Positions 51,552 through 62,260 of a DNA stretch of 64,000 nt are shown one piece after another. Numbering within the stretch: the first letter of the stretch is position 1; each line of letters starts with the position of its first letter. The notes under the pieces are model-generated. The model saw nothing but the letters and a program-made list of their open reading frames with translations. It had not been told where the DNA came from and did not search any database. Location of the stretch: positions 459,365 to 523,364 of the forward strand of contig JAYNIM010000001.1 of assembly GCA_038109055.1 (NCBI GenBank), read 5' to 3'. This DNA is from a bacterium (GTDB lineage: Bacteria > Margulisbacteria > Marinamargulisbacteria > GCA-2716485 > JAYNIM01). The translations under genes and the position numbers were made by a program.

Positions 51552-52364
51552 CTATGTGCTTGTAGTTGTTAAATCAAATTCTTCATCTAATGATTCTAAT
51601 GAAATTGGATCTGCATCTAAAAAATCATTTTCTTCAAATAAATCTTCTTCAATACTATTTTCTATTAATTCCTCATTTGTACCTTTGATACTTTGCATAT
51701 TCTTTGTTTCTGTAAGCTTATTTAATTCTGTTGTGCTTTGAAAACTATCCTTACGTTCTTTATTTTGATAGGATTCTTCTCTGTTATTACTTTCTTCTTT
51801 GCTACCTACCTCTATCTCATCGTTTTCATAAAATTGCATATATAATGCGTTGAATATACTTTCATCTAAAGGCGTGTTTTTTACTTTAGTATTTAGTATT
51901 CTTGATTTTTCATTTTCAGAGTAATGTTTTAGAATATTTTCTTGTTCTTGAAGGTCTAATTTAGTCAAAAAAAAGGCGATTGTTTGTACCTGTTCATTTT
52001 TTAATATCTCGGCAATTTCACTGTAGCTTCTCTGTGACCTGTCTGGATGACTATCTGCTACCTCTAACAGGTCATCATCTTCTTCCGAAGTTTTTTCTTC
52101 TTCCTCTTCTTCCTCTATGTCATTTAAAAAATTGTCTTCCTGTATAAGACTCATATCTTCTGGTTGCTCTAGTGTAATATGATCTACTTCTTCAATAAAT
52201 TCTGCTATTAATTGGTTTAGCTCTTTTTGAGATGGCATTGGAGGTTGTTCTATTTTTAACAACCTAGTTAAAGTATCTTGCCGCATGTGCTTTAAAACAG
52301 CCTCTGCTTGATTACCTAAAACAGATACTATAACCTTTGCTTTTATATGATTTTCTAGTGTCAC
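51552..52364 (-). CDS. fliG: Truncated FliG homolog (N and M domains plus acidic tail)
   Basis: KAKVIVSVLGNQAEAVLKHM (FliG-N); EILKNEQVQTIAFFL (EHPQ-like, FliG-M); directly after fliF. Confidence 0.75.
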   Translation of the reverse strand: MTLENHIKAKVIVSVLGNQAEAVLKHMRQDTLTRLLKIEQPPMPSQKELNQLIAEFIEEVDHITLEQPEDMSLIQEDNFLNDIEEEEEEEKTSEEDDDLLEVADSHPDRSQRSYSEIAEILKNEQVQTIAFFLTKLDLQEQENILKHYSENEKSRILNTKVKNTPLDESIFNALYMQFYENDEIEVGSKEESNNREESYQNKERKDSFQSTTELNKLTETKNMQSIKGTNEELIENSIEEDLFEENDFLDADPISLESLDEEFDLTTTST

Positions 52365-53854
52365 GTAAGTACCTCTTCTTTTAATAATTCTTCTAGAGCA
52401 GCTGCTATATGTTCTGGGTTTGATGTTGCTTTTTTCTTTAAGTCATCTATATTTCTTTCTTTTTGAATCTCTTCTTTTAGTTGTTCAAATTTAGTGACTT
52501 CGTTTTGCTTTTTATTCAAAGAGCTACTGCCCTTTTTTCTTGACTTTAAGAAAAAATAAACCAAAGTTAAGCCCATAGACAACATGCCTATAACACCCCA
52601 ACTTTCAAAATATTCAAAGATAGTTTTACTTTCATCTTTATAAAAAGGGGCTTTATTAAGAAAAATAATATCACGCCCATCTTGATAGCCTATAATTGCG
52701 GCTATGGTAGAAAACACCTCTATTTTTTTTGCATCATCCAGCACAATATCTTCGTTATATTCATCGACTATTATACTCACCGTTGTTCGTTTAATTTCGG
52801 CACTGTTACCGTCTTTTGATGCAGTAATTTCTGCATTTGCAGCTACCTTAAATGAATTTCTAGGAAAAACTCCAGCCAATTGTTTATTAATTTTACTTAA
52901 TATATTATTTTCAAAATTTTCTTTTATTGTGAACCATTGTTTAATATTCTCAAAATTTGGAAGTATTGGCTGCAATTCTTTTATTTCATCTGATTTTTCT
53001 TCTTTCTTTTTATCTAAGAGTCTATCTTTCTCAAAGACTTTTATTTTTTGTTCATTTTTTATTTCATCTAAAATACCATAGGACAACTCAGTTCCTTGTG
53101 TGTCTACAACTGTTATATTTTTAAGACTTAAGCTTTCTACGGCTTTTGCGACGAGCTGCATAATACTATAAACCATGGTTGTGGTTAATGTTTTACCAGG
53201 TGTTTTTCTAACCAAAATACTTGCTGTTACTGGGGGCTGTTTTGATATAAATAGACGCTCTTTAGGCATTACAATTTGAACTTTAGCATCTTCGATCATT
53301 TCCAAACTTGTAATGACTTTTTCGAGTTCTCCAGACAAGGCTCTTAAATAACGTACTTTCTTATCAAATTCTGTGACGCCTAAAGTTTGAGTATTGTCTA
53401 ATAACTCATAGCCTTTAACAGCACCTGAAGGCAAGCCCTTTGTTGCGAGTAATACCTTTGCAGTTTCTAATTTTTTACTATCGACTGATAAACTAAAATT
53501 CTTTCCTTTTTGTGCCAAGGTAAATGAAATATTTGCAAAGCTTAATTCTTTAATGACTTGTGAGACTTGTGTCGCTGGTAATTGTGGGTATAGAACCAGG
53601 TATTTTATTTTCTTATCCCGCTTGGTTTTTTTCTTTGTTTGAGATTGTGCCTCATTTTTCCCCTTATTTCCCTCTAACCCAATGTCATCATTATCTAAAT
53701 TAACATAAAATAATAGGCCTCCTATTATTAAGGCTGTCATAATAATGGCAGCCATCCATATATTTTTTTTATGAAATAACCTAGATGTTTTATCTTGTGT
53801 TAAGTTATTTAAATCTTCTTCTAAATCATCAATTATCAAATTTTCTTCTGCCAT
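52361..53854 (-). CDS. fliF: Flagellar MS-ring protein FliF (divergent)
   Basis: GLPSGAVKGYELLD, GVTEFD...RALSGELEKVI, AKVQIVMPKERLF, PVTASI, two TM helices. Confidence 0.92.
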   Translation of the reverse strand: MAEENLIIDDLEEDLNNLTQDKTSRLFHKKNIWMAAIIMTALIIGGLLFYVNLDNDDIGLEGNKGKNEAQSQTKKKTKRDKKIKYLVLYPQLPATQVSQVIKELSFANISFTLAQKGKNFSLSVDSKKLETAKVLLATKGLPSGAVKGYELLDNTQTLGVTEFDKKVRYLRALSGELEKVITSLEMIEDAKVQIVMPKERLFISKQPPVTASILVRKTPGKTLTTTMVYSIMQLVAKAVESLSLKNITVVDTQGTELSYGILDEIKNEQKIKVFEKDRLLDKKKEEKSDEIKELQPILPNFENIKQWFTIKENFENNILSKINKQLAGVFPRNSFKVAANAEITASKDGNSAEIKRTTVSIIVDEYNEDIVLDDAKKIEVFSTIAAIIGYQDGRDIIFLNKAPFYKDESKTIFEYFESWGVIGMLSMGLTLVYFFLKSRKKGSSSLNKKQNEVTKFEQLKEEIQKERNIDDLKKKATSNPEHIAAALEELLKEEVLT

Positions 53855-53860
53855 AACTAC

Positions 53861-54439
53861 CTAAATTTGCATTGATATTAATTCTTTGAATGTTTGAGAT
53901 GCAGTTGAAATAACCGTGGTTGCAAAGCTTATTGCTAAGTTTAATTTTGTCGTTTCAATCGATACCTCCTCGATTGATACTTTCCCTTCTACATATTTTT
54001 GCATAAGGTCATTTACTCTAAATTCTAACTGGCTAACACTGTTTAATGATTTAACGGCTTGTTCACTAAAATACTGAAAAGGTGTGATCTCTAGTGCATG
54101 GTCAAAATTTAAATATTCTAATTTTTCCTCTTCTTTCGTTTCTGCATCAAATAGCTCTTTTGTTCTTTTTTTTCTATCTTGAATTGTTAAATTTGGATCA
54201 TTTGCAGTTGCTGCTTGTGCAATTAAGACATGTTGATTTAAGTTAATTGGGTTATTTTGTATTGTTACTTGTGGTAGTGGATTTTTTTCCTGAGTTTTAT
54301 TATCCATTATTCCATCTAACAATAACTTAAACTCATTTTTTATTTCTGGTTTTACGATATTTTGCGCAAAGGATGTTGCTGATGTTGTGGGGTTTACGTT
54401 GTTAAGAGGGTTTATATTAAGGGGACTTATATTACTCAT
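53861..54439 (-). CDS. fliE: FliE homolog with long N-terminal extension
   Basis: C-terminal FliE pattern YVEGKVSIEEVSI...FKELISMQI; between flgC and fliF. Confidence 0.78.
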   Translation of the reverse strand: MSNISPLNINPLNNVNPTTSATSFAQNIVKPEIKNEFKLLLDGIMDNKTQEKNPLPQVTIQNNPINLNQHVLIAQAATANDPNLTIQDRKKRTKELFDAETKEEEKLEYLNFDHALEITPFQYFSEQAVKSLNSVSQLEFRVNDLMQKYVEGKVSIEEVSIETTKLNLAISFATTVISTASQTFKELISMQI

Positions 54440-54440
54440 A

Positions 54441-54896
54441 TTATTTCATTAACTCTATTGCACTTTGATACATTGATTTGCTAACTTTTAATGCGGTTAT
54501 GTTTGCCTCATATACGGCCTCTGTAAATGTTAATGTCATCATCTCATTAGGCAGATTAACATTTGGATAATAAAAATAACCATTTTCATCCGCTTGAGGT
54601 GCGGCTGGATCAAAATAACGCCCGAAAGGTTCTGTACTTCTTTTTATTCCAGTTACTTTTACCCCGTCTTTAAATTTTTCTAGTTGAATATATTTCTTTT
54701 GATAAGGTAATCCTGTTTCTTCGTCTTTTAAAGTATTTAAGTTTGCAACATTTTCTGCGATAATCATCATTTTTGTTCTCTGTGCTAAAATCCCCGATAT
54801 ATTTATAGAAAATGAATCATCTAAATTTGAAACTGCATAGACTGAGTATGATACGTATACTGTTATTATACATATAATTGCCGTTATTCTATTCAT
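54441..54896 (-). CDS. flgC: Basal-body rod protein FlgC with N-terminal signal-like sequence
   Basis: SGILAQRTKMMIIAENVANLNT, PYQKK, FDPAAPQADENGY..YPNVN..EM, YEAN. Confidence 0.9.
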   Translation of the reverse strand: MNRITAIICIITVYVSYSVYAVSNLDDSFSINISGILAQRTKMMIIAENVANLNTLKDEETGLPYQKKYIQLEKFKDGVKVTGIKRSTEPFGRYFDPAAPQADENGYFYYPNVNLPNEMMTLTFTEAVYEANITALKVSKSMYQSAIELMK

Positions 54897-55309
54897 TATT
54901 GTTTACCTAGTGTCACTACTTTTCTTAAATTCTCTACGCGTTTTTTATAAAGTGTATATAACGCTTGTTGCCGTTTGTTGTTTTCTGCAATTTTTCCCAT
55001 AAAATGTTCTATCATTACTTTCGAAAAGTATGCTTTATCTTCTGTTTCAACATTAAACAAGCGCTCTAATTCGGCTCTATCTTCTGGTAATAAAATTGGC
55101 CTAAATTTTGGTGTTGTGGCATTTGCTATGTTGTATGAATATATCGCATGTTTTTGGTTACTATATTTTATAGCACGCTCTAATACCATCCCTGTTGAAT
55201 CTTCAAGTATATGTCCTTTTGTTTTACTTTTTGCTATATCTAGTTTTTGTGCTAGTAAGGACGTAGTTAAACTTATAAATATAGCTATTACCAGTATTCT
55301 CGCTATCAT
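54896..55309 (-). CDS. flgB: Basal-body rod protein FlgB with N-terminal signal-like sequence
   Basis: LERAI...NIANATTPKFR rod motif; precedes flgC. Confidence 0.78.
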   Translation of the reverse strand: MIARILVIAIFISLTTSLLAQKLDIAKSKTKGHILEDSTGMVLERAIKYSNQKHAIYSYNIANATTPKFRPILLPEDRAELERLFNVETEDKAYFSKVMIEHFMGKIAENNKRQQALYTLYKKRVENLRKVVTLGKQ

Positions 55310-55318
55310 ATTTTTTGT

Positions 55319-56044
55319 TTATATATAAATATCTTTTTCTTCTAATTCTAAATATCTCTTAATTAATTTTAACGCTTCCATATGGACTCTGCAAACTTTG
55401 CTTTTGGACACCTTTAATTTCTCTGCAACTTCGTTTTGTTTCATGTTACTTTGATAAATTAATTGTATAACTTCTTTCTTAGCTGATTCTAATTTATTCA
55501 CAATATTCCATATATTTGTTGTACTTTCAATATACGCTTCTTCTATATCTCTTCCACACGTATTGGCGGTAGAAAATTTCTCTAAATCGTTGGTATTTAG
55601 TAGATAGGATACGGATGACTGTGTCACGATCTCATTTAATGTTTTTTCAAAACTTTGTCTATTTGCTTTATTTTTATCGTCGAGTATATTCTCCGTAATC
55701 TCCATCATTTTTTCTTGTATATTTTCTCTATATCTTGCGTATTCAGCAGGATTCTTTTGTTTCCATTCCAACCTCAAATTATCCATTATCTGACCTTGAA
55801 TACGATAATATGCGTAGGTTTTAAAATTAGATTCTTTTTTTTCTTTGTATTGCACTTTCGCTTTAATCAAGCCTTCAATACCCCAACTGATTAAATCCTC
55901 TTTTTCAACACCTGAAGGTATTTTAGACTTCATAAATATTTTACTCGCAACTCCTTTAACTAGAATTAAATGGTCATCGATAAATGCTTGTGATACTTGC
56001 TGTTGTAATATCTCTTCTTTGCTATTCATATTTATGTTAGTCAA
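55319..56044 (-). CDS. fliA: FliA/WhiG-like (sigma-28 family) sigma factor
   Basis: EDLISWGIEGL, FKTYAYYRIQGQIMDNLR (region 2), QNEVAEKLKVSKSKVCRVH (region 4). Confidence 0.8.
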   Translation of the reverse strand: MTNINMNSKEEILQQQVSQAFIDDHLILVKGVASKIFMKSKIPSGVEKEDLISWGIEGLIKAKVQYKEKKESNFKTYAYYRIQGQIMDNLRLEWKQKNPAEYARYRENIQEKMMEITENILDDKNKANRQSFEKTLNEIVTQSSVSYLLNTNDLEKFSTANTCGRDIEEAYIESTTNIWNIVNKLESAKKEVIQLIYQSNMKQNEVAEKLKVSKSKVCRVHMEALKLIKRYLELEEKDIYI

Positions 56045-56672
56045 TTAATTTTTGTTTTGTTTTGTGTATATATATGATATCTCTTTCTTCATTATAATCT
56101 ATAGTATCAGATACGATTAAAAAAACAGATTCTTCTATTTTTTCATCTAAACTATTCTCTTGTGCTAATATACTTATACTCTTTTTTTGAATAGTGCTAT
56201 TATTTTTATTTAACTCTACTCTTGAGACTATTCTAAAGGATTTTTCTGGGAATGCTTCTCTCAACTTTCTTTTTACTCTATTGGATAAATTGTTTTCTAT
56301 ATGTTCTTTCCGTGAGAGTGATGCATCTTTGGGCAAAAATTTTTCCTCAAACTTTAATAAATCCATTTTTGCAAGTTTATCTGCCATTTCTTTAGCTAGC
56401 AGATCATTGATCATGTCACTTTGTGTCACATCTATATAATCGATATCTTCATCTATAAATATTTCCATTTTTTTAAAAGCAGGTTCCGTTAAAATCTTCT
56501 TGATAAAAAAAGACTGCATAAACTGGACTGCTTCTTTTCTTGTTCTGGGTTTTTTATTATTATACAAACTTGAAGAATAATGATTAGCCGCTAATGGTAT
56601 TCCTTCGTAACTCATTGATGGAATAGCATAACTAATAGCAATAATACCTATAATTATTATAATTTTGTTCAA
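56037..56672 (-). CDS. FlgJ rod-binding-like domain fused to a FliF RBM3-like domain, with signal-like N-terminus
   Basis: flgJ position after flgI; KEAVQFMQSFFIKKIL...DMINDLLAKEMADKLAK resembles the rod-binding domain; C-terminal ~90 aa align with this window's FliF. Confidence 0.65.
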   Translation of the reverse strand: MNKIIIIIGIIAISYAIPSMSYEGIPLAANHYSSSLYNNKKPRTRKEAVQFMQSFFIKKILTEPAFKKMEIFIDEDIDYIDVTQSDMINDLLAKEMADKLAKMDLLKFEEKFLPKDASLSRKEHIENNLSNRVKRKLREAFPEKSFRIVSRVELNKNNSTIQKKSISILAQENSLDEKIEESVFLIVSDTIDYNEERDIIYIHKTKQKLID

Positions 56673-57727
56673 ATGATTTCAATGTTTGCTATCAGTGCGC
56701 CTGCTTCTTTTAGTGCTTGTATAATTGAAATTAAATCTCTTGGAGAAGCACCAATTTCATTTAAAGTATCTACTAAGCTTGATAGTGTTTCGTTTGATTT
56801 TAAATATACTAACTTTTTCTTCTCTTCATCAATTTCTAACTGATTTTGCTGATCTGATATTGCACCTGCTTGTGGTTCTGTAATTCGAATAGATACAGCC
56901 CCATGTGTCAAGGCTACAGGGCTTAAACGCACCATTTCTCCAATTACAATGGTACCTGTTCTTTCATTAATGACAATTTTTGCTGATTGGTCAGGCTTTA
57001 CTGAAATATTTTCTAATTTTGCAATGGTACTAATTAAATTTGCTGAATTCAAATCTGTTAATGGTATTTTAATTTGTCTAGCATCTAATGCTTTTGCACC
57101 TAAAAAGCCCTCATCATGGATGGCATTAACTGCACGATCTATAGTTATAAAATTTGAATCATTTAAAACAATGGAGATATTGTGCACATCTGTAAAGGTG
57201 ACGGGAACTTCTTTTTCTACAATGGCCCCATCTGTGATAATTCCAACTGTTGGTTTGTTTTTAGCATACATAATGGTACTTGAACGCTGTGCTGCACCTC
57301 CCACTACAACCGAACCTTGGCCAACAGCATAAACTCTCATATCAGCACCTTTCAAGGGGGTCATCAATAAGGTACCTCCATCTAAACTAGATGCATCTCC
57401 GAGTGCTGATACCGTTAGTGAAATCCGTTGTCCTGACTTTACAAATGCGGGTAGGGTTGCTGTCACCATCACGGCTGCCGTGTTTCGTATATTACCAACA
57501 CTACCTACTTGTACACCCATTTTAACTAATAAATTTCTCAGTGCAGTTGGTGTAAAAAAGGTATTTCGACTGTCACCAGTACTTTTCAATCCAACCACTA
57601 AGCCAAATCCAATTAATTGGTTATCTCTCATTTCTACAATTTTTGAAATATCTTTTAACCTTACTTCTACAGCAAAGCTTGCTGTAGTAAAGCTAAATAA
57701 TACTAGTAGTAACAATGCTCGTTTCAT
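56669..57727 (-). CDS. flgI: Flagellar P-ring protein
   Basis: RLKDI, RDNQLIGFGLVVGL..TGD, AAVMVTATLP, INERTGTIVIG, DLISIIQALKEAGAL. Confidence 0.96.
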   Translation of the reverse strand: MKRALLLLVLFSFTTASFAVEVRLKDISKIVEMRDNQLIGFGLVVGLKSTGDSRNTFFTPTALRNLLVKMGVQVGSVGNIRNTAAVMVTATLPAFVKSGQRISLTVSALGDASSLDGGTLLMTPLKGADMRVYAVGQGSVVVGGAAQRSSTIMYAKNKPTVGIITDGAIVEKEVPVTFTDVHNISIVLNDSNFITIDRAVNAIHDEGFLGAKALDARQIKIPLTDLNSANLISTIAKLENISVKPDQSAKIVINERTGTIVIGEMVRLSPVALTHGAVSIRITEPQAGAISDQQNQLEIDEEKKKLVYLKSNETLSSLVDTLNEIGASPRDLISIIQALKEAGALIANIEII

Positions 57728-57729
57728 TT

Positions 57730-58338
57730 TTAAAATACCCAATTAAATATCCTACTTATTATTCCTGGATTCTGCTTGGCTGCAACTGGTCCCCCTCTAC
57801 CGCTTACTGAAACCTCAGCTTTTGCAATTTGATACGAAAAAATAGTATTCTTTGGAGTCACATCTGCAGGCCGCACAATCCCAGATACTCGAATAGTTTC
57901 GATGTCATGATTCACTTTAACCTTGTGTTCTCCCACTACAAATAAATTCCCGCTCTTTAACACTTCTGTCACAATTGCCGTTATAATTGCCTTTACGTTG
58001 CTTTTTCTCGTCGTTTGTCCATTGCCTTGATATCTATCACCCCCGCCTATAGAGATATCTCGTTTTTTCCTCACTCGTTCATTGCCTAATAAATTAGCCA
58101 CTTGATCCCAATTGTCTGCAAGTGATGAGGTTAGTGAGGTTGTTTTTCCTGAAGAGGTGCTCGCCTGTTGTACAGCGGAGGTGGATTCGGATACGTAGAT
58201 AGTAACGATATCCCCCACTGAAATTCTTCGTCGCGATGGTTGGTATATGCCTTCACTATAGGTTCTCCATAATGAATCTGCCCCAATAGATGTTGTTACT
58301 AAGATTAATAAACTAATCAATATAAATATTTTTTTCAT
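57730..58338 (-). CDS. flgH: Flagellar L-ring protein (no lipobox Cys)
   Basis: VGDIVTI.VSE, VTEVLKSGNLFVVGEH, SGIVRPADV..NTI.S.QIA, C-terminal PGIISRIFNWVF. Confidence 0.92.
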   Translation of the reverse strand: MKKIFILISLLILVTTSIGADSLWRTYSEGIYQPSRRRISVGDIVTIYVSESTSAVQQASTSSGKTTSLTSSLADNWDQVANLLGNERVRKKRDISIGGGDRYQGNGQTTRKSNVKAIITAIVTEVLKSGNLFVVGEHKVKVNHDIETIRVSGIVRPADVTPKNTIFSYQIAKAEVSVSGRGGPVAAKQNPGIISRIFNWVF

Positions 58339-59050
58339 CTATCACTTTTCCTTTTAATCGTTTTAGTGTTGATAATTTTGATGTTACCGGTATGTACCCA
58401 CCTATTTGACCATCCGCTAATGCTTGTCCATCAACTTTTATTTGCCCCCATTTTTTATTTATTAAAATTGATATAGGATCACCTTTTTGTATTGCTGGTT
58501 TTTCTTCTATGGCTAAATAATGTACCTGTGTATTTTTAGGAATACTACGTTTTGCTATTTTTCCTATCATTTCTTCCTTAGTAAATATATAATTCTGCAG
58601 GGTTGATAATTTTGAATAAATTAATTTTTCTTTCATGATTAAATCAGACTCTGTAATCATTTTACCTCGTTGAATCAAGTGCTTTGTGACAGGCATTTTT
58701 GTGGTTGCTTCTATTTTTAATAAAAGGGTCTGTCTTTCTAGAAGAGTCCCCTGCCGGTCATAGAAAAAAATCGGCTGTATTTGAGTCCCCAGTAAATCGT
58801 TGATTTTAGGGTCTGGACATTTAAAATAACTGGCTTTTTCAGGTATATCTAATTTTGTTAAATCAATTTTGAATGTCATTTTAAAGGTCATTAATTCTGC
58901 ATTTATATTTCCCAGAACATGCTCTAATTTTTGTCGATAGACAGTTCTGACTTCTTTTTTGATATCTGCTAGACTCACCGCAGCATGAATCGTATTTATC
59001 GCTAGACTCACAATCAAACTAATAATAAAAAAAAGCCTACTTAATGTCAC
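58313..59050 (-). CDS. flgA: P-ring assembly chaperone FlgA
   Basis: Signal peptide, SAF-like region, IQKGDPISI, GQALADGQIGGYIPV; between flgG and flgH. Confidence 0.85.
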   Translation of the reverse strand: MTLSRLFFIISLIVSLAINTIHAAVSLADIKKEVRTVYRQKLEHVLGNINAELMTFKMTFKIDLTKLDIPEKASYFKCPDPKINDLLGTQIQPIFFYDRQGTLLERQTLLLKIEATTKMPVTKHLIQRGKMITESDLIMKEKLIYSKLSTLQNYIFTKEEMIGKIAKRSIPKNTQVHYLAIEEKPAIQKGDPISILINKKWGQIKVDGQALADGQIGGYIPVTSKLSTLKRLKGKVIDEKNIYID

Positions 59051-59834
59051 TTCCAGCCTTTAGCATATCATCGGATGCTTTCATTGCTTTAATAACCGTT
59101 TCAAAGGAACGTTGACACATCAGCATTTCCATCATTTCAGAGATAATATCTACATTTGAAAATTCCAATGATCGTTGCCTGATAGACCCCATGCCCTGTT
59201 CACCCGGTATAATTAATTGTGGATCCCCAGAGCTTTCTGTTTCTTGCATTAAATTTTGGCCAATATCTTTTAAACCTTCTGGATTCATAAACTTTGCTAA
59301 GACCATCTGTCCAATTTCTTGTTGTTGAGTATCTCCATCTAATAAGGCAAAAATTCGGCCTTCTTGATTCACAATAATTTCTCTTGCTTCTAAAGGGATA
59401 GTTAATGGTGGATCTAAGGGATGTCCGCTAGAATTTAATACTCTTCCTTGACTGTCTACATGAAAATTTCCTGCTCGACTATAAGCGGCGCTTCCATCTG
59501 GCAATTGAAACTGAAACATACCATTCCCTTCGATTGCCATATCCATTTGCCTGTTTGTTACTTCGATTGTTCCAGTACTAAAGTTCTTTGTAATACCCAC
59601 GAACCGAACACCTTGACCAAACTCGATATATTTTTTTCTACGTTTGCTGCTACCTGTTTCTTCATCAGACTCCGTCACAGCTCTTTCAAAAATTAATGGA
59701 AACAAACTTTCCATCTCTAAGCGTCTTTCCTTATATCCTGGTGTTTGTGCATTTGAGATATTATTTGTAATAACCTGCATTTTTCGTTGAAACGAATATA
59801 ATGCTGATTTTGCCATATGTAATTGAGATAACAT
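59037..59834 (-). CDS. flgG: Distal rod protein FlgG
   Basis: NNISNAQTPGYK, GQGVR, DMAIEGNGMFQ, YSRAGNF, LEFSNVDIISEM; AAGGAG RBS. Confidence 0.92.
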   Translation of the reverse strand: MLSQLHMAKSALYSFQRKMQVITNNISNAQTPGYKERRLEMESLFPLIFERAVTESDEETGSSKRRKKYIEFGQGVRFVGITKNFSTGTIEVTNRQMDMAIEGNGMFQFQLPDGSAAYSRAGNFHVDSQGRVLNSSGHPLDPPLTIPLEAREIIVNQEGRIFALLDGDTQQQEIGQMVLAKFMNPEGLKDIGQNLMQETESSGDPQLIIPGEQGMGSIRQRSLEFSNVDIISEMMEMLMCQRSFETVIKAMKASDDMLKAGSDIK

Positions 59835-59852
59835 AATTAAACTCCTTTTATT

Positions 59853-60659
59853 TTAATTTGGTGCGGCAATTTGTGTCGCTGTATTGGCTGATCGTGCCAA
59901 TACTTTAAGAACCTTTGCATTTGATTGATACCCATTTGTTGCATAGGTTATATCTCCTACTAAGGCTTTTACTACATTATTTTCTTCTATATGACCTTGT
60001 ACAACTTTATAGTACTCAACCCCACTCAAAATTTCAGCCTCTTCTACTAGTACAAATACGGATCCATTCAGTGAATTGAGCTTTTGCATTTCTTTATAGG
60101 AGGCAAATACCGCTACTTTTATACGATCTACTTCTTCACCATCTACGTATATCATTCCAGATCGTGACACAACAACATCGCCTTTAGGCAAGTATATTGG
60201 CCCTTTATCACCTAATACGGGATAATTTCCGGCAACAGTGACTAAACGGTCACTCCCATCTCTCGTGAAGCGCCCATCTCGGGTATAACCCAGAGTTGTT
60301 TTTAATTGTATAACAAAAAAACCTTTACTCATCGCATCTATGTAAAAATCTAATGGTCTATGTGTTTCAACGACCGGACCTGCTCGCCAACGATAAAAAG
60401 GAATGGCATCTATTCGTTTCTCTCCATTCTTATCAATCATTCTTGAATTAAACGCGCCTGTTTCGATAAAGCCTGGTGTGTTTACATTCATGGTGTAAAA
60501 CAACCAATTACTCCACTGAATTTGAAAAGCCCTCATTGCTTGCATACTTCCATTAGCGGCAATATCTTGAATCTCACCATAATCCTCATAAGAAGAAAGG
60601 TTACTCGTTATGATAAGTAGACATACTATCAAGGTCTTTATTTTATTAATACCGTTCAT
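59853..60659 (-). CDS. flgF: Rod protein FlgF-like with N-terminal signal-like sequence
   Basis: NVNTPGF, ETHRPLDFYI, YTRDGRF, G.PVLG, QGHIEENNV; precedes flgG. Confidence 0.82.
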   Translation of the reverse strand: MNGINKIKTLIVCLLIITSNLSSYEDYGEIQDIAANGSMQAMRAFQIQWSNWLFYTMNVNTPGFIETGAFNSRMIDKNGEKRIDAIPFYRWRAGPVVETHRPLDFYIDAMSKGFFVIQLKTTLGYTRDGRFTRDGSDRLVTVAGNYPVLGDKGPIYLPKGDVVVSRSGMIYVDGEEVDRIKVAVFASYKEMQKLNSLNGSVFVLVEEAEILSGVEYYKVVQGHIEENNVVKALVGDITYATNGYQSNAKVLKVLARSANTATQIAAPN

Positions 60660-60674
60660 TTATCTCTATTCTCA

Positions 60675-61046
60675 TTATTTTCTTTTTAGTTTCTTATTAA
60701 TCTTATTTCGTTTATCCGATAATTTTTCAAGTTGATACGCAAAGGCTAACACCTCTGCTATTATAGCATATAATTTTGATGGTATATGTTGATTCAATTC
60801 TAATTTAGACAACAAATTACTTAATACGGGATCTTCATACAGAGGTATTTTGTGATCTTCTGCAATATGTAAAATCATTTCAGCAATTGAGGCTTTACCA
60901 GATGCAACGATTTTTGGGGCCTTGTCTTTTTCAATATCATATTTTATTGCGACTGCTTTTAACTTTTCTTTTTTGGGTAGATTTAACTGATCAATACGTT
61001 TCTTAAAGTTGATCTTATGTTTCTTCTGATTCTCGTTTGCCATCAT
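60675..61046 (-). CDS. Stand-alone FlhB C-terminal-domain protein (EscU/YscU/HrcU family)
   Basis: KAVAIKYD...APKIVASG...IAEMI...IPLYED..L...L...IP..LY.IIAEVLAF; no TM domain. Confidence 0.9.
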   Translation of the reverse strand: MMANENQKKHKINFKKRIDQLNLPKKEKLKAVAIKYDIEKDKAPKIVASGKASIAEMILHIAEDHKIPLYEDPVLSNLLSKLELNQHIPSKLYAIIAEVLAFAYQLEKLSDKRNKINKKLKRK

Positions 61047-62260
61047 GCCTCTGTACTAATATGTGTTAACCTATCTAAATCAAAATTTGGACATAACAAT
61101 TCTTTTACCGGGATCTTTTTATCCATATATTTCACACCTTTAACTTTATAGTTAATGGCTTCCATTTGCTTTATTAAATCTGGAACCAAACTTGAAATTA
61201 TCCGTTTTGTTTCTCCGTCTTTGCTATTAAACGTATATATTAGCGTATTCTCTATGACATTGATCACAATACTTAATTCCCCAATATTTTCTGTTTCAAA
61301 CTTAATGATCATGGTTGTTTTATCTTCATTTATCTGTGAGTTTTGTTTATTATTTCGTTTTTGAATGAGGATATCCATATTATTTACTGGCGAGGCTAAT
61401 AAATTTGGTATTTGCCAAAAATGAAACAAGTCTGCCTTAATCATAAACTGTGACTCTTTGGATAAGACCAAATAAGCTAAACTATGATCAATATATTTTT
61501 CTAGTGATTTTTGCGTTTTCTCAAAAACTTCTTTGAGGCTTTGTTGTTGATATACATCTTTTATTTGAGTCAGTATTTTTTTATCCATCCCTTTTAGAAG
61601 ACTCAAAAACAGTTTCGACTCTTTCATTAACCCAACATATTTTTCAACTTTAAAATTCAGCATGTTCTTTTTATCAAATCTGTAAAATTGTAACTTCTCA
61701 TCTATTGCCGCTACTATCGCCGCTAAATGTTGCGTAAAAGCAGGACTCAATCCATCCTTAGAGGCGTGCATCGCTGCTTGTAATGCTTGTAAGTTTTGCT
61801 GTAATTGTTTGACTGTCCCTGTTAAATCTAATTCATTTGATAAAAATTGTTTTAACACAGAAATACTTTTACCGTTCCCTTTTAAATTTTTAGCAATTGA
61901 TAAGACGATAGACTCTAAATCCTTTGATGACGTCTTTCCTTTCATCAAATTATCAATTATTTCAAAATAATCTTGATTCAAAGGAACTCCATAAGAAAGC
62001 ATCGTCATGCCAATCCTCATATTATCAACATTGGGACTCTTACCAAAACTTAAGAGTTGATTCATGATGTCATCTTTCGAATAGGGCTGTCGTTTACTTT
62101 CTGTTTTTTTTGTTGTTGAACGCACATCTTCTGATTGTGCTGTATGAATAGATGATACATTCGTTTCGTGACTTGTCTTTGATAGGGATCTACTTTGAGA
62201 TTCCTCCGGAAGCTTGGGAGGTTGCGCACGATGTGATGAACCGGGAACTGATAAATTCAT
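61043..62260 (-). CDS. FliK-like protein (C-terminal hook-length-control-type domain)
   Basis: Low-complexity N-terminus; C-terminal IIKFETENIGELSIVI...TFNS...L.KQMEAINYKV; coupled to the FlhB-like gene. Confidence 0.65.
   Translation of the reverse strand: MNLSVPGSSHRAQPPKLPEESQSRSLSKTSHETNVSSIHTAQSEDVRSTTKKTESKRQPYSKDDIMNQLLSFGKSPNVDNMRIGMTMLSYGVPLNQDYFEIIDNLMKGKTSSKDLESIVLSIAKNLKGNGKSISVLKQFLSNELDLTGTVKQLQQNLQALQAAMHASKDGLSPAFTQHLAAIVAAIDEKLQFYRFDKKNMLNFKVEKYVGLMKESKLFLSLLKGMDKKILTQIKDVYQQQSLKEVFEKTQKSLEKYIDHSLAYLVLSKESQFMIKADLFHFWQIPNLLASPVNNMDILIQKRNNKQNSQINEDKTTMIIKFETENIGELSIVINVIENTLIYTFNSKDGETKRIISSLVPDLIKQMEAINYKVKGVKYMDKKIPVKELLCPNFDLDRLTHISTEA

Follow-up and report, generated by a model that had tools for sequence, protein, structure and literature searches.

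Classical FlgJ exits through the flagellar export gate. In Salmonella and E. coli, FlgJ has a two-domain layout, in which an N-terminal half that scaffolds the rod is joined to a glucosaminidase, while single-domain FlgJ proteins are widespread in many groups (PMC8517470). The ring-building motif RBM3 of Salmonella FliF comprises 211 residues with its beta-collar; the beta-collar houses the proximal rod, and the subunits of the S-ring pack by hydrophobic contacts (PMC11739650). Isolated Salmonella RBM3, collar included, self-associates and forms rings, and SpoIIIAG, a homologue of RBM3, uses such a motif outside FliF (PMC8786727). Finally, Buchnera retains basal-body and export genes in basal bodies that carry no filament (PMC8109811).

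The locus described here lies in a window of 64,000 nucleotides (the whole stretch of DNA that was analyzed), which is part of the genome of an uncultured aquatic marinamargulisbacterium (G000; 1.8 Mb, 93% complete); a homologue of the N-terminal half of the fusion protein (P0013) also bears the name of a Marinamargulisbacteria protein. The window contains a basal-body operon with fliK-like, flhB-C-like, flgF-like, flgG, flgA, flgH, flgI, the fusion gene, fliA, flgB-like, flgC, fliE, fliF, and short fliG genes (Table 1). The flgB-like gene has no matching Pfam hit and is named by position only. The open reading frame (ORF) of the fusion gene shares 4 bases with flgI and 8 with fliA. Its product is a real and apparently undescribed combination of a FlgJ-like domain with an RBM3, limited to one species-level cluster. 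Both halves are known flagellar parts. The earlier note on this DNA knew of no fusion of a rod cap to RBM3, and no FlgJ-RBM3 fusion turned up in searches of the open-access literature. The main texts of two papers on Margulisbacteria (PMC6349859, PMC6784892) hold no passage on flagella.

Table 1. Coordinates of the fusion gene, its parts, and its operon, in positions of the window
Feature	Position	Strand	Basis or remark
Fusion gene, 211 aa, intact ORF	56037..56672	-	flgJ position, between flgI and fliA
N-terminus resembling a signal peptide (residues ~1-21), Sec export predicted	56610..56672	-	Hydropathy rule only
FlgJ-like helical domain, residues 41-113, without muramidase	56334..56552	-	Family profile match, E 1.3e-30
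Short linker, residues 114-120	56313..56333	-	Coincides with the end, or the start of a short tail, of close relatives' genes
Diverged collar-less FliF RBM3 (S-ring) copy, residues 121-206	56055..56312	-	Alignment, profile, model
RBM3 (residues 311-401) of the FliF in the same operon, probable donor	52652..52924	-	Top pairwise score, tree sister
fliF, 497 aa, RBM1-RBM2 (YscJ_FliF) and collar-less RBM3	52361..53854	-	Pfam
flgI (P-ring), upstream neighbor	56669..57742	-	Pfam FlgI, E 4e-107
fliA-like sigma factor, downstream neighbor	55319..56044	-	Pfam Sigma70_r2 and r4
Basal-body operon hosting the fusion gene	51552..62260	-	ORFs and Pfam

The fusion protein itself matches neither Pfam PF10135 (Rod-binding) nor the NCBIfam FlgJ models. 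The whole protein has no match to any Pfam family at E up to 1, muramidase and glucosaminidase included, in agreement with the absence of a muramidase that had been read from the sequence earlier. Among 137 homologues of its N-terminal half, Rod-binding is matched by 23 (E up to 0.05; best, 6.7e−6) and is the only Pfam family matched by more than one of them. TIGR02541 is matched by 10 of the 137 (E up to 0.1), and the five recurring NCBIfam matches of the family are all named FlgJ or peptidoglycan hydrolase. The gene stands directly after flgH-flgI both in the window and at all 24 relatives' loci read in context. The model of the N-half is helical (pLDDT 77), and its Foldseek comparison with solved folds gave two rows, both with E over 8. 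A hydrophobic, signal-peptide-like start is present, by a hydropathy rule, in all 25 family rows (best 10-residue mean in the fusion protein, 3.74). By the same rule, the FlgB-, FlgC-, and FlgF-like proteins (54441-55309, 59853-60659) start with a hydrophobic stretch, and FlgG and FliE do not. These weak but recurring family hits suggest that the N-half is a single-domain FlgJ-like protein bearing a predicted signal peptide, and they bear out the earlier assignment, made from the flgJ position, of a FlgJ-like N-half.

The N-half resembles single-domain FlgJ (PF10135; e.g., FlgJ of Borrelia) in its place after flgH-flgI, in its short helical domain without a glycoside hydrolase, and in its weak recurring family matches. 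It differs from single-domain FlgJ in the signal-peptide-like start throughout the family and in the RBM3 copy, which is found in this species only. Because single-domain FlgJ is widespread (PMC8517470) and is the norm in the relatives, the missing muramidase is ordinary. The fusion protein shares with dual-domain FlgJ the two-domain layout with a rod-scaffolding type of N-half, but its second domain is a predicted ring-building motif and not a glucosaminidase.

Residues 122-204 of the fusion protein align with residues 311-401 of the FliF encoded in the same operon (BLASTP; 27 of 91 residues identical, 30%; E 9e−12). This is the only significant alignment to FliF, it covers neither RBM1-RBM2 nor the two membrane helices and the FliG-binding tail, and the fusion protein has no YscJ_FliF match. 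None of 2000 shuffles reaches the Smith-Waterman score of 137 (shuffles, 42.5 ± 6.8; maximum, 101). A profile of the FliF RBM3 of 27 relatives, from which both the fusion protein and the FliF of this genome were left out, matches residues 121-206 of the fusion protein (E 5.1e−12), and hhalign gives a probability of 95.7 for the fused copy against FliF RBM3. The earlier note had estimated about 30% identity by eye over residues ~122-207 and had proposed a comparison with shuffled sequences. The identity and the significance hold, as does the start of the range, but the alignment stops at 204-206. Pfam YscJ_FliF_C (PF08345) is matched by 28 of the 29 alignment rows at E up to 1 (best, 1.6e−6), the fused copy being the sole row without a match.

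The AlphaFold2 model of the C-half, which was guided by FliF rows, has an alpha-beta-beta-alpha-beta fold (pLDDT 87.7; H5-30 E36-44 E51-61 H67-80 E89-95). As had been expected earlier, the 14 best Foldseek matches of this FliF-guided model are FliF RBM3 rings, with TM-scores by query of 0.75-0.80 in 13 of the 14 and of 0.66 in the remaining one. An unguided single-sequence Atlas model is poor (pLDDT 0.43); its top row is a SpoIIIAF-domain cluster (TM 0.61), under the tool's bar. Where the beta-collar would lie, between the first two strands, the C-half model has only a 6-residue turn, and the RBM3 of the genome's own FliF is collar-less as well, at ~95 residues. Both copies are thus collar-less, as the earlier note had it. 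The core of the domain is complete in the fused copy, and the only deletions are two of 4 residues each, in loops. Alignment, profile, and model together identify the C-half as a second, collar-less copy of FliF RBM3. It resembles FliF RBM3 (PF08345; e.g., PDB 8ZDT and 6SD3) in predicted fold and in its identity to the operon's FliF. Unlike FliF, it comes without beta-collar, RBM1-RBM2, transmembrane helices, and FliG-binding tail, it is joined to a FlgJ-like domain, and it lies below Pfam detection. Like SpoIIIAG and SpoIIIAF, it would be a ring-building motif used outside FliF, but the copy is far closer to the FliF of its lineage, and ring formation is here only hypothetical.

Could the fusion be an assembly artefact, or a read-through of two separate genes? 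Among the contigs listed, none spans the whole stretch, and the well-covered runs come from one study. However, a second strain (P0005, P0006) has the same fusion in the same frame and at the same 211-aa length with 10 amino acid substitutions, which rules out an assembly error. The junction is crossed, without differences, by a run X2 contig (56176-56389) that derives from a different sample of that study. The DNA of the copy is far from that of fliF (codon-aligned identity, 0.62, 0.60, and 0.50), and the synonymous sites of the two are saturated (same codon at 15 of 27 shared residues, 15.5 expected); therefore, the gene is no chimera with the genome's own fliF. Moreover, no separate gene for an RBM3 lies between flgJ and fliA in relatives. 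The second strain, the bridging contig, and the divergence from fliF largely refute an artefact or read-through, which we regard as extremely improbable.

The origin of the copy most likely lies in a duplication of the RBM3 of the genome's own fliF. Among 28 orthologous RBM3 domains, own FliF has the top pairwise score (128 versus 105 for the next), and the two other FliF-like genes of the genome score 52 and 40, near chance. The copy and own FliF are sisters in the full tree of 29 rows (support, 29/96) and in a tree without three long rows, L012, L015, and L061 (support, 100/98). A domain taken from another lineage's fliF or from an unsampled paralogue, or one that has since taken on some other binding role, apart from the MS ring, seems to us quite improbable. 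The weak bootstrap of the full tree speaks for a foreign donor, as do two distant FliF rows that are nearly as good as own FliF (shuffle-corrected z, 16.0 and 14.3 versus 18.0), and residues that are rare and shared with the copy do not single out own FliF (9, versus 11 in L012 and 11 in L015). Against it stand the top score, the sister grouping without the long rows, the near-chance scores of the genome's other FliF-like genes, and a codon-position G+C content like that of fliF RBM3 (third position, 0.18 versus 0.19).

After the duplication, the copy probably diverged fast. Its branch is very long in both trees (1.99 without the three long rows, 4.41 with all 29), and that of own FliF is long too. 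Of 26 positions that are conserved in 85% or more of the FliF rows, 11 are identical in the copy, 6 are similar, and 9 are non-conservatively changed or lost (manual grouping), the changes including two glycines to acidic residues, whereas own FliF keeps 23 of the 26. The synonymous distance between strains was estimated from run X4 contigs that share five N-terminal substitutions with P0005, as a proxy for the strain's DNA over the copy (11 changes at 144 sites, one of them counted from a codon with a double change). The copy has 4 amino acid changes between strains versus ~16 under neutral expectation (ratio, 0.25; binomial test, P = 0.011; P = 0.15 with the synonymous rate at its lower bound), and the FlgJ core has 1 versus ~14. 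This indirect estimate suggests that the copy is under weak purifying selection, with which function and mere folding are both compatible.

To place the fusion among relatives, we used 24 relatives' genes that could be read in context, drawn from 30 loci of 61 genomes. All 24 are short (108-170 aa), unfused, and directly followed by fliA. Relatives' proteins end in C-terminal tails of freely varying length. Of the homologues, the three nearest (51-59% identity) are likewise short and unfused, as is the gene of locus L100; therefore, the RBM3 was gained after the split from them. Among the 146 genomes of the phylum, the N-half profile matches 89 and the RBM3 profile 131, with a second near-full RBM3 match in G000 only. 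Other extra RBM3 matches are partial in a paralogue of G000, weak in G011 (a FliF-like paralogue) and in G009, and split into two parts of one frame in G100. Of 150 listed family representatives out of 175, from a collection of 1.84 billion proteins, only the fusion protein exceeds 187 aa, and among 179 stored proteins, RBM3 is found only in the fusion protein, its strain copies, and FliF. Among those searched, with incomplete genomes and thin sampling of the family, the fusion occurs in a single species-level cluster.

The closest unfused homologue (P0053, 59% identity) carries a source label that assigns it to a Picozoa data set, which may hint at protist association or co-sampling. Two single records join the FlgJ-like domain to FlgI (P0022) and to a sigma-70 domain (P0028); these are probably frameshift read-throughs of neighboring genes.

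A collar-less RBM3 is common to all 28 aligned FliF rows; the missing collar and the missing muramidase are lineage-wide traits and not features of the fusion. The genome encodes FlhA, FlhB, FliP, FliQ, FliR, FliN, and FliI, and searches of it for flagellin and FlgD gave no match. Across the class, Flagellin_N is found in 1 of 55 genomes and in none of the 18 high-quality ones, while basal-body genes are near-universal. The FliG of the operon (51552-52364) has weak matches to the N and M domains, an acidic insert and tail, and no FliG_C match. In keeping basal-body and export genes without a flagellin match, the genome resembles Buchnera (PMC8109811), but it differs in its collar-less FliF, its FliG without a FliG_C match, and its rod-like proteins with signal-peptide-like starts. 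Because the filament-less, flagellum-derived machine and the collar-less FliF are class-wide, the fusion is a local addition. Being found in one cluster only, while a short FlgJ suffices in relatives that share the collar-less FliF, it is no general part of the machine.

What might the copy do? Our preferred reading, held tentatively, is that it serves as a tether or adaptor, docking the FlgJ-like domain to the MS ring. The N-terminal hydrophobic stretch would route the fusion protein via Sec to the periplasm, as in the FlgB-, FlgC-, and FlgF-like proteins, and the FlgJ-like half would bind rod subunits. The RBM3 half would fold, reuse its inherited RBM3-RBM3 surface, and lie on the FliF S-ring or occupy a few of its positions, so that the docked protein would keep its rod-binding half close to the growing rod. 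Since a beta-collar is missing from this FliF, the tether would assist in positioning Sec-delivered rod subunits at the ring. The fusion protein would be an accessory of one lineage, on which the machine does not depend. Homology and fold of the RBM3 are supported by sequence, profile, and FliF-guided model, the core is complete and has an identical or similar residue at 17 of the 26 conserved positions, the copy changes less between strains than expected (P = 0.011), and the signal-peptide-like start would put it in the compartment of the S-ring. Self-association of isolated Salmonella RBM3 (PMC8786727) and the housing of the proximal rod by the beta-collar (PMC11739650) are in line with docking, but the self-assembling construct contains the collar. 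Other points weigh against the tether: the fusion is missing in the 24 in-context relatives and the closest homologues, although these share the collar-less FliF; 9 of 26 conserved positions are eroded; the branch is very long; the selection signal is non-significant at the lower synonymous bound; and neither the bootstrap of 29 nor the rare residues single out own FliF. In addition, the C-half model was guided by FliF sequences, and the N-half itself matches no FlgJ model and no solved fold.

The narrow range and the eroded conservation make it nearly as likely that the copy is a folded passenger, that is, a piece of fliF copied by chance onto the end of flgJ, tolerated, and constrained only to fold and not to interfere, while the FlgJ-like half works as in relatives. 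Its occurrence in one species-level cluster among 150 listed family representatives and 146 genomes fits a passenger, as do the long branch with its lost conserved positions, the freely varying tails of relatives, and the other chance-looking joins to neighbors in the family (P0022, P0028). A passenger would not be expected to cover the whole domain core with just two short loop deletions, to have kept its frame until the synonymous sites were saturated, or to show about a quarter of the neutral changes between strains. Another alternative is a second periplasmic ring, in which fused RBM3 domains would polymerize above the S-ring and turn the FlgJ-like domains inward round the rod as a replacement collar. 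Such a ring was the main proposal of the earlier note, beside a subunit that co-assembles with the MS ring and holds the rod. The retained RBM fold (by model), the collar-less FliF, the rings formed by isolated Salmonella RBM3, and the homology of RBM3 to SpoIIIAG (PMC8786727) are compatible with it, and fast divergence would stop the copy from mixing with FliF. Yet an S-ring is built from 33-34 subunits around an inner diameter of 142-146 Å (PMC11739650), which would poorly fit a small tip-cap domain on a 7-residue linker; the collar strands that stabilize the Salmonella ring are absent here, conserved positions are eroded, and the RBM3 profile found no relative with such a ring in 146 genomes. 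We consider a second ring unlikely. Somewhat less doubtful is a broader proposal, that the lineage rebuilt a lost collar in a filament-less machine whose rod parts come by Sec, with the duplicated S-ring domain either stacking on the MS ring or polymerizing above it and presenting rod-binding FlgJ domains inward.

If the copy does bind the MS ring, the fusion would be a dated natural example of how accessory rings originate in flagellar and type III machines, with an RBM duplicated and attached to an axial chaperone. If the collar was rebuilt, a new ring component would have been caught soon after its origin by domain duplication. The narrow range of the fusion limits its general weight. The class-wide machine, with no flagellin in 54 of 55 genomes, a collar-less FliF, and separate FliF-FliG-MotAB modules, is probably the larger story.

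Other flagellar loci of this genome were observed alongside. A second FliF-like gene (319 aa; L092:5153-10248, G000:C1:38153-43248) has no RBM1-RBM2 match and a partial RBM3 followed by a long insert; after it come genes for a FliG with FliG_C, MotA, MotB, a 168-aa protein, and a TPR protein. A third FliF-like gene (483 aa; L098:10380-17491, G000:C2) has YscJ_FliF_C only and belongs to an operon with MotA, MotB, a full FliG, a 224-aa gene, and two TPR proteins, which looks like a stand-alone rotor-stator module; a similar operon is present in G011 (L093). Just upstream of this module lie five secreted-looking genes (L098:4430-10299), of which three were scanned and have no Pfam match; by eye, they resemble a chaperone-usher pilus locus. 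Two FlgE/F/G D1-domain genes lie beyond the operon (L101:4929-5738, G000:C1:261929-262738; and G000:C8:72661-72813), the one in L101 being a FlgF-like paralogue with a hydrophobic N-terminus. The export gate is encoded at L099:7903-18380 (flhA, flhB, fliR, fliQ, fliP, fliN, and a ParA/MinD-type ATPase), and fliI is found at L102:4278-6945 with FliH- and FliJ-like neighbors, named by position and look.
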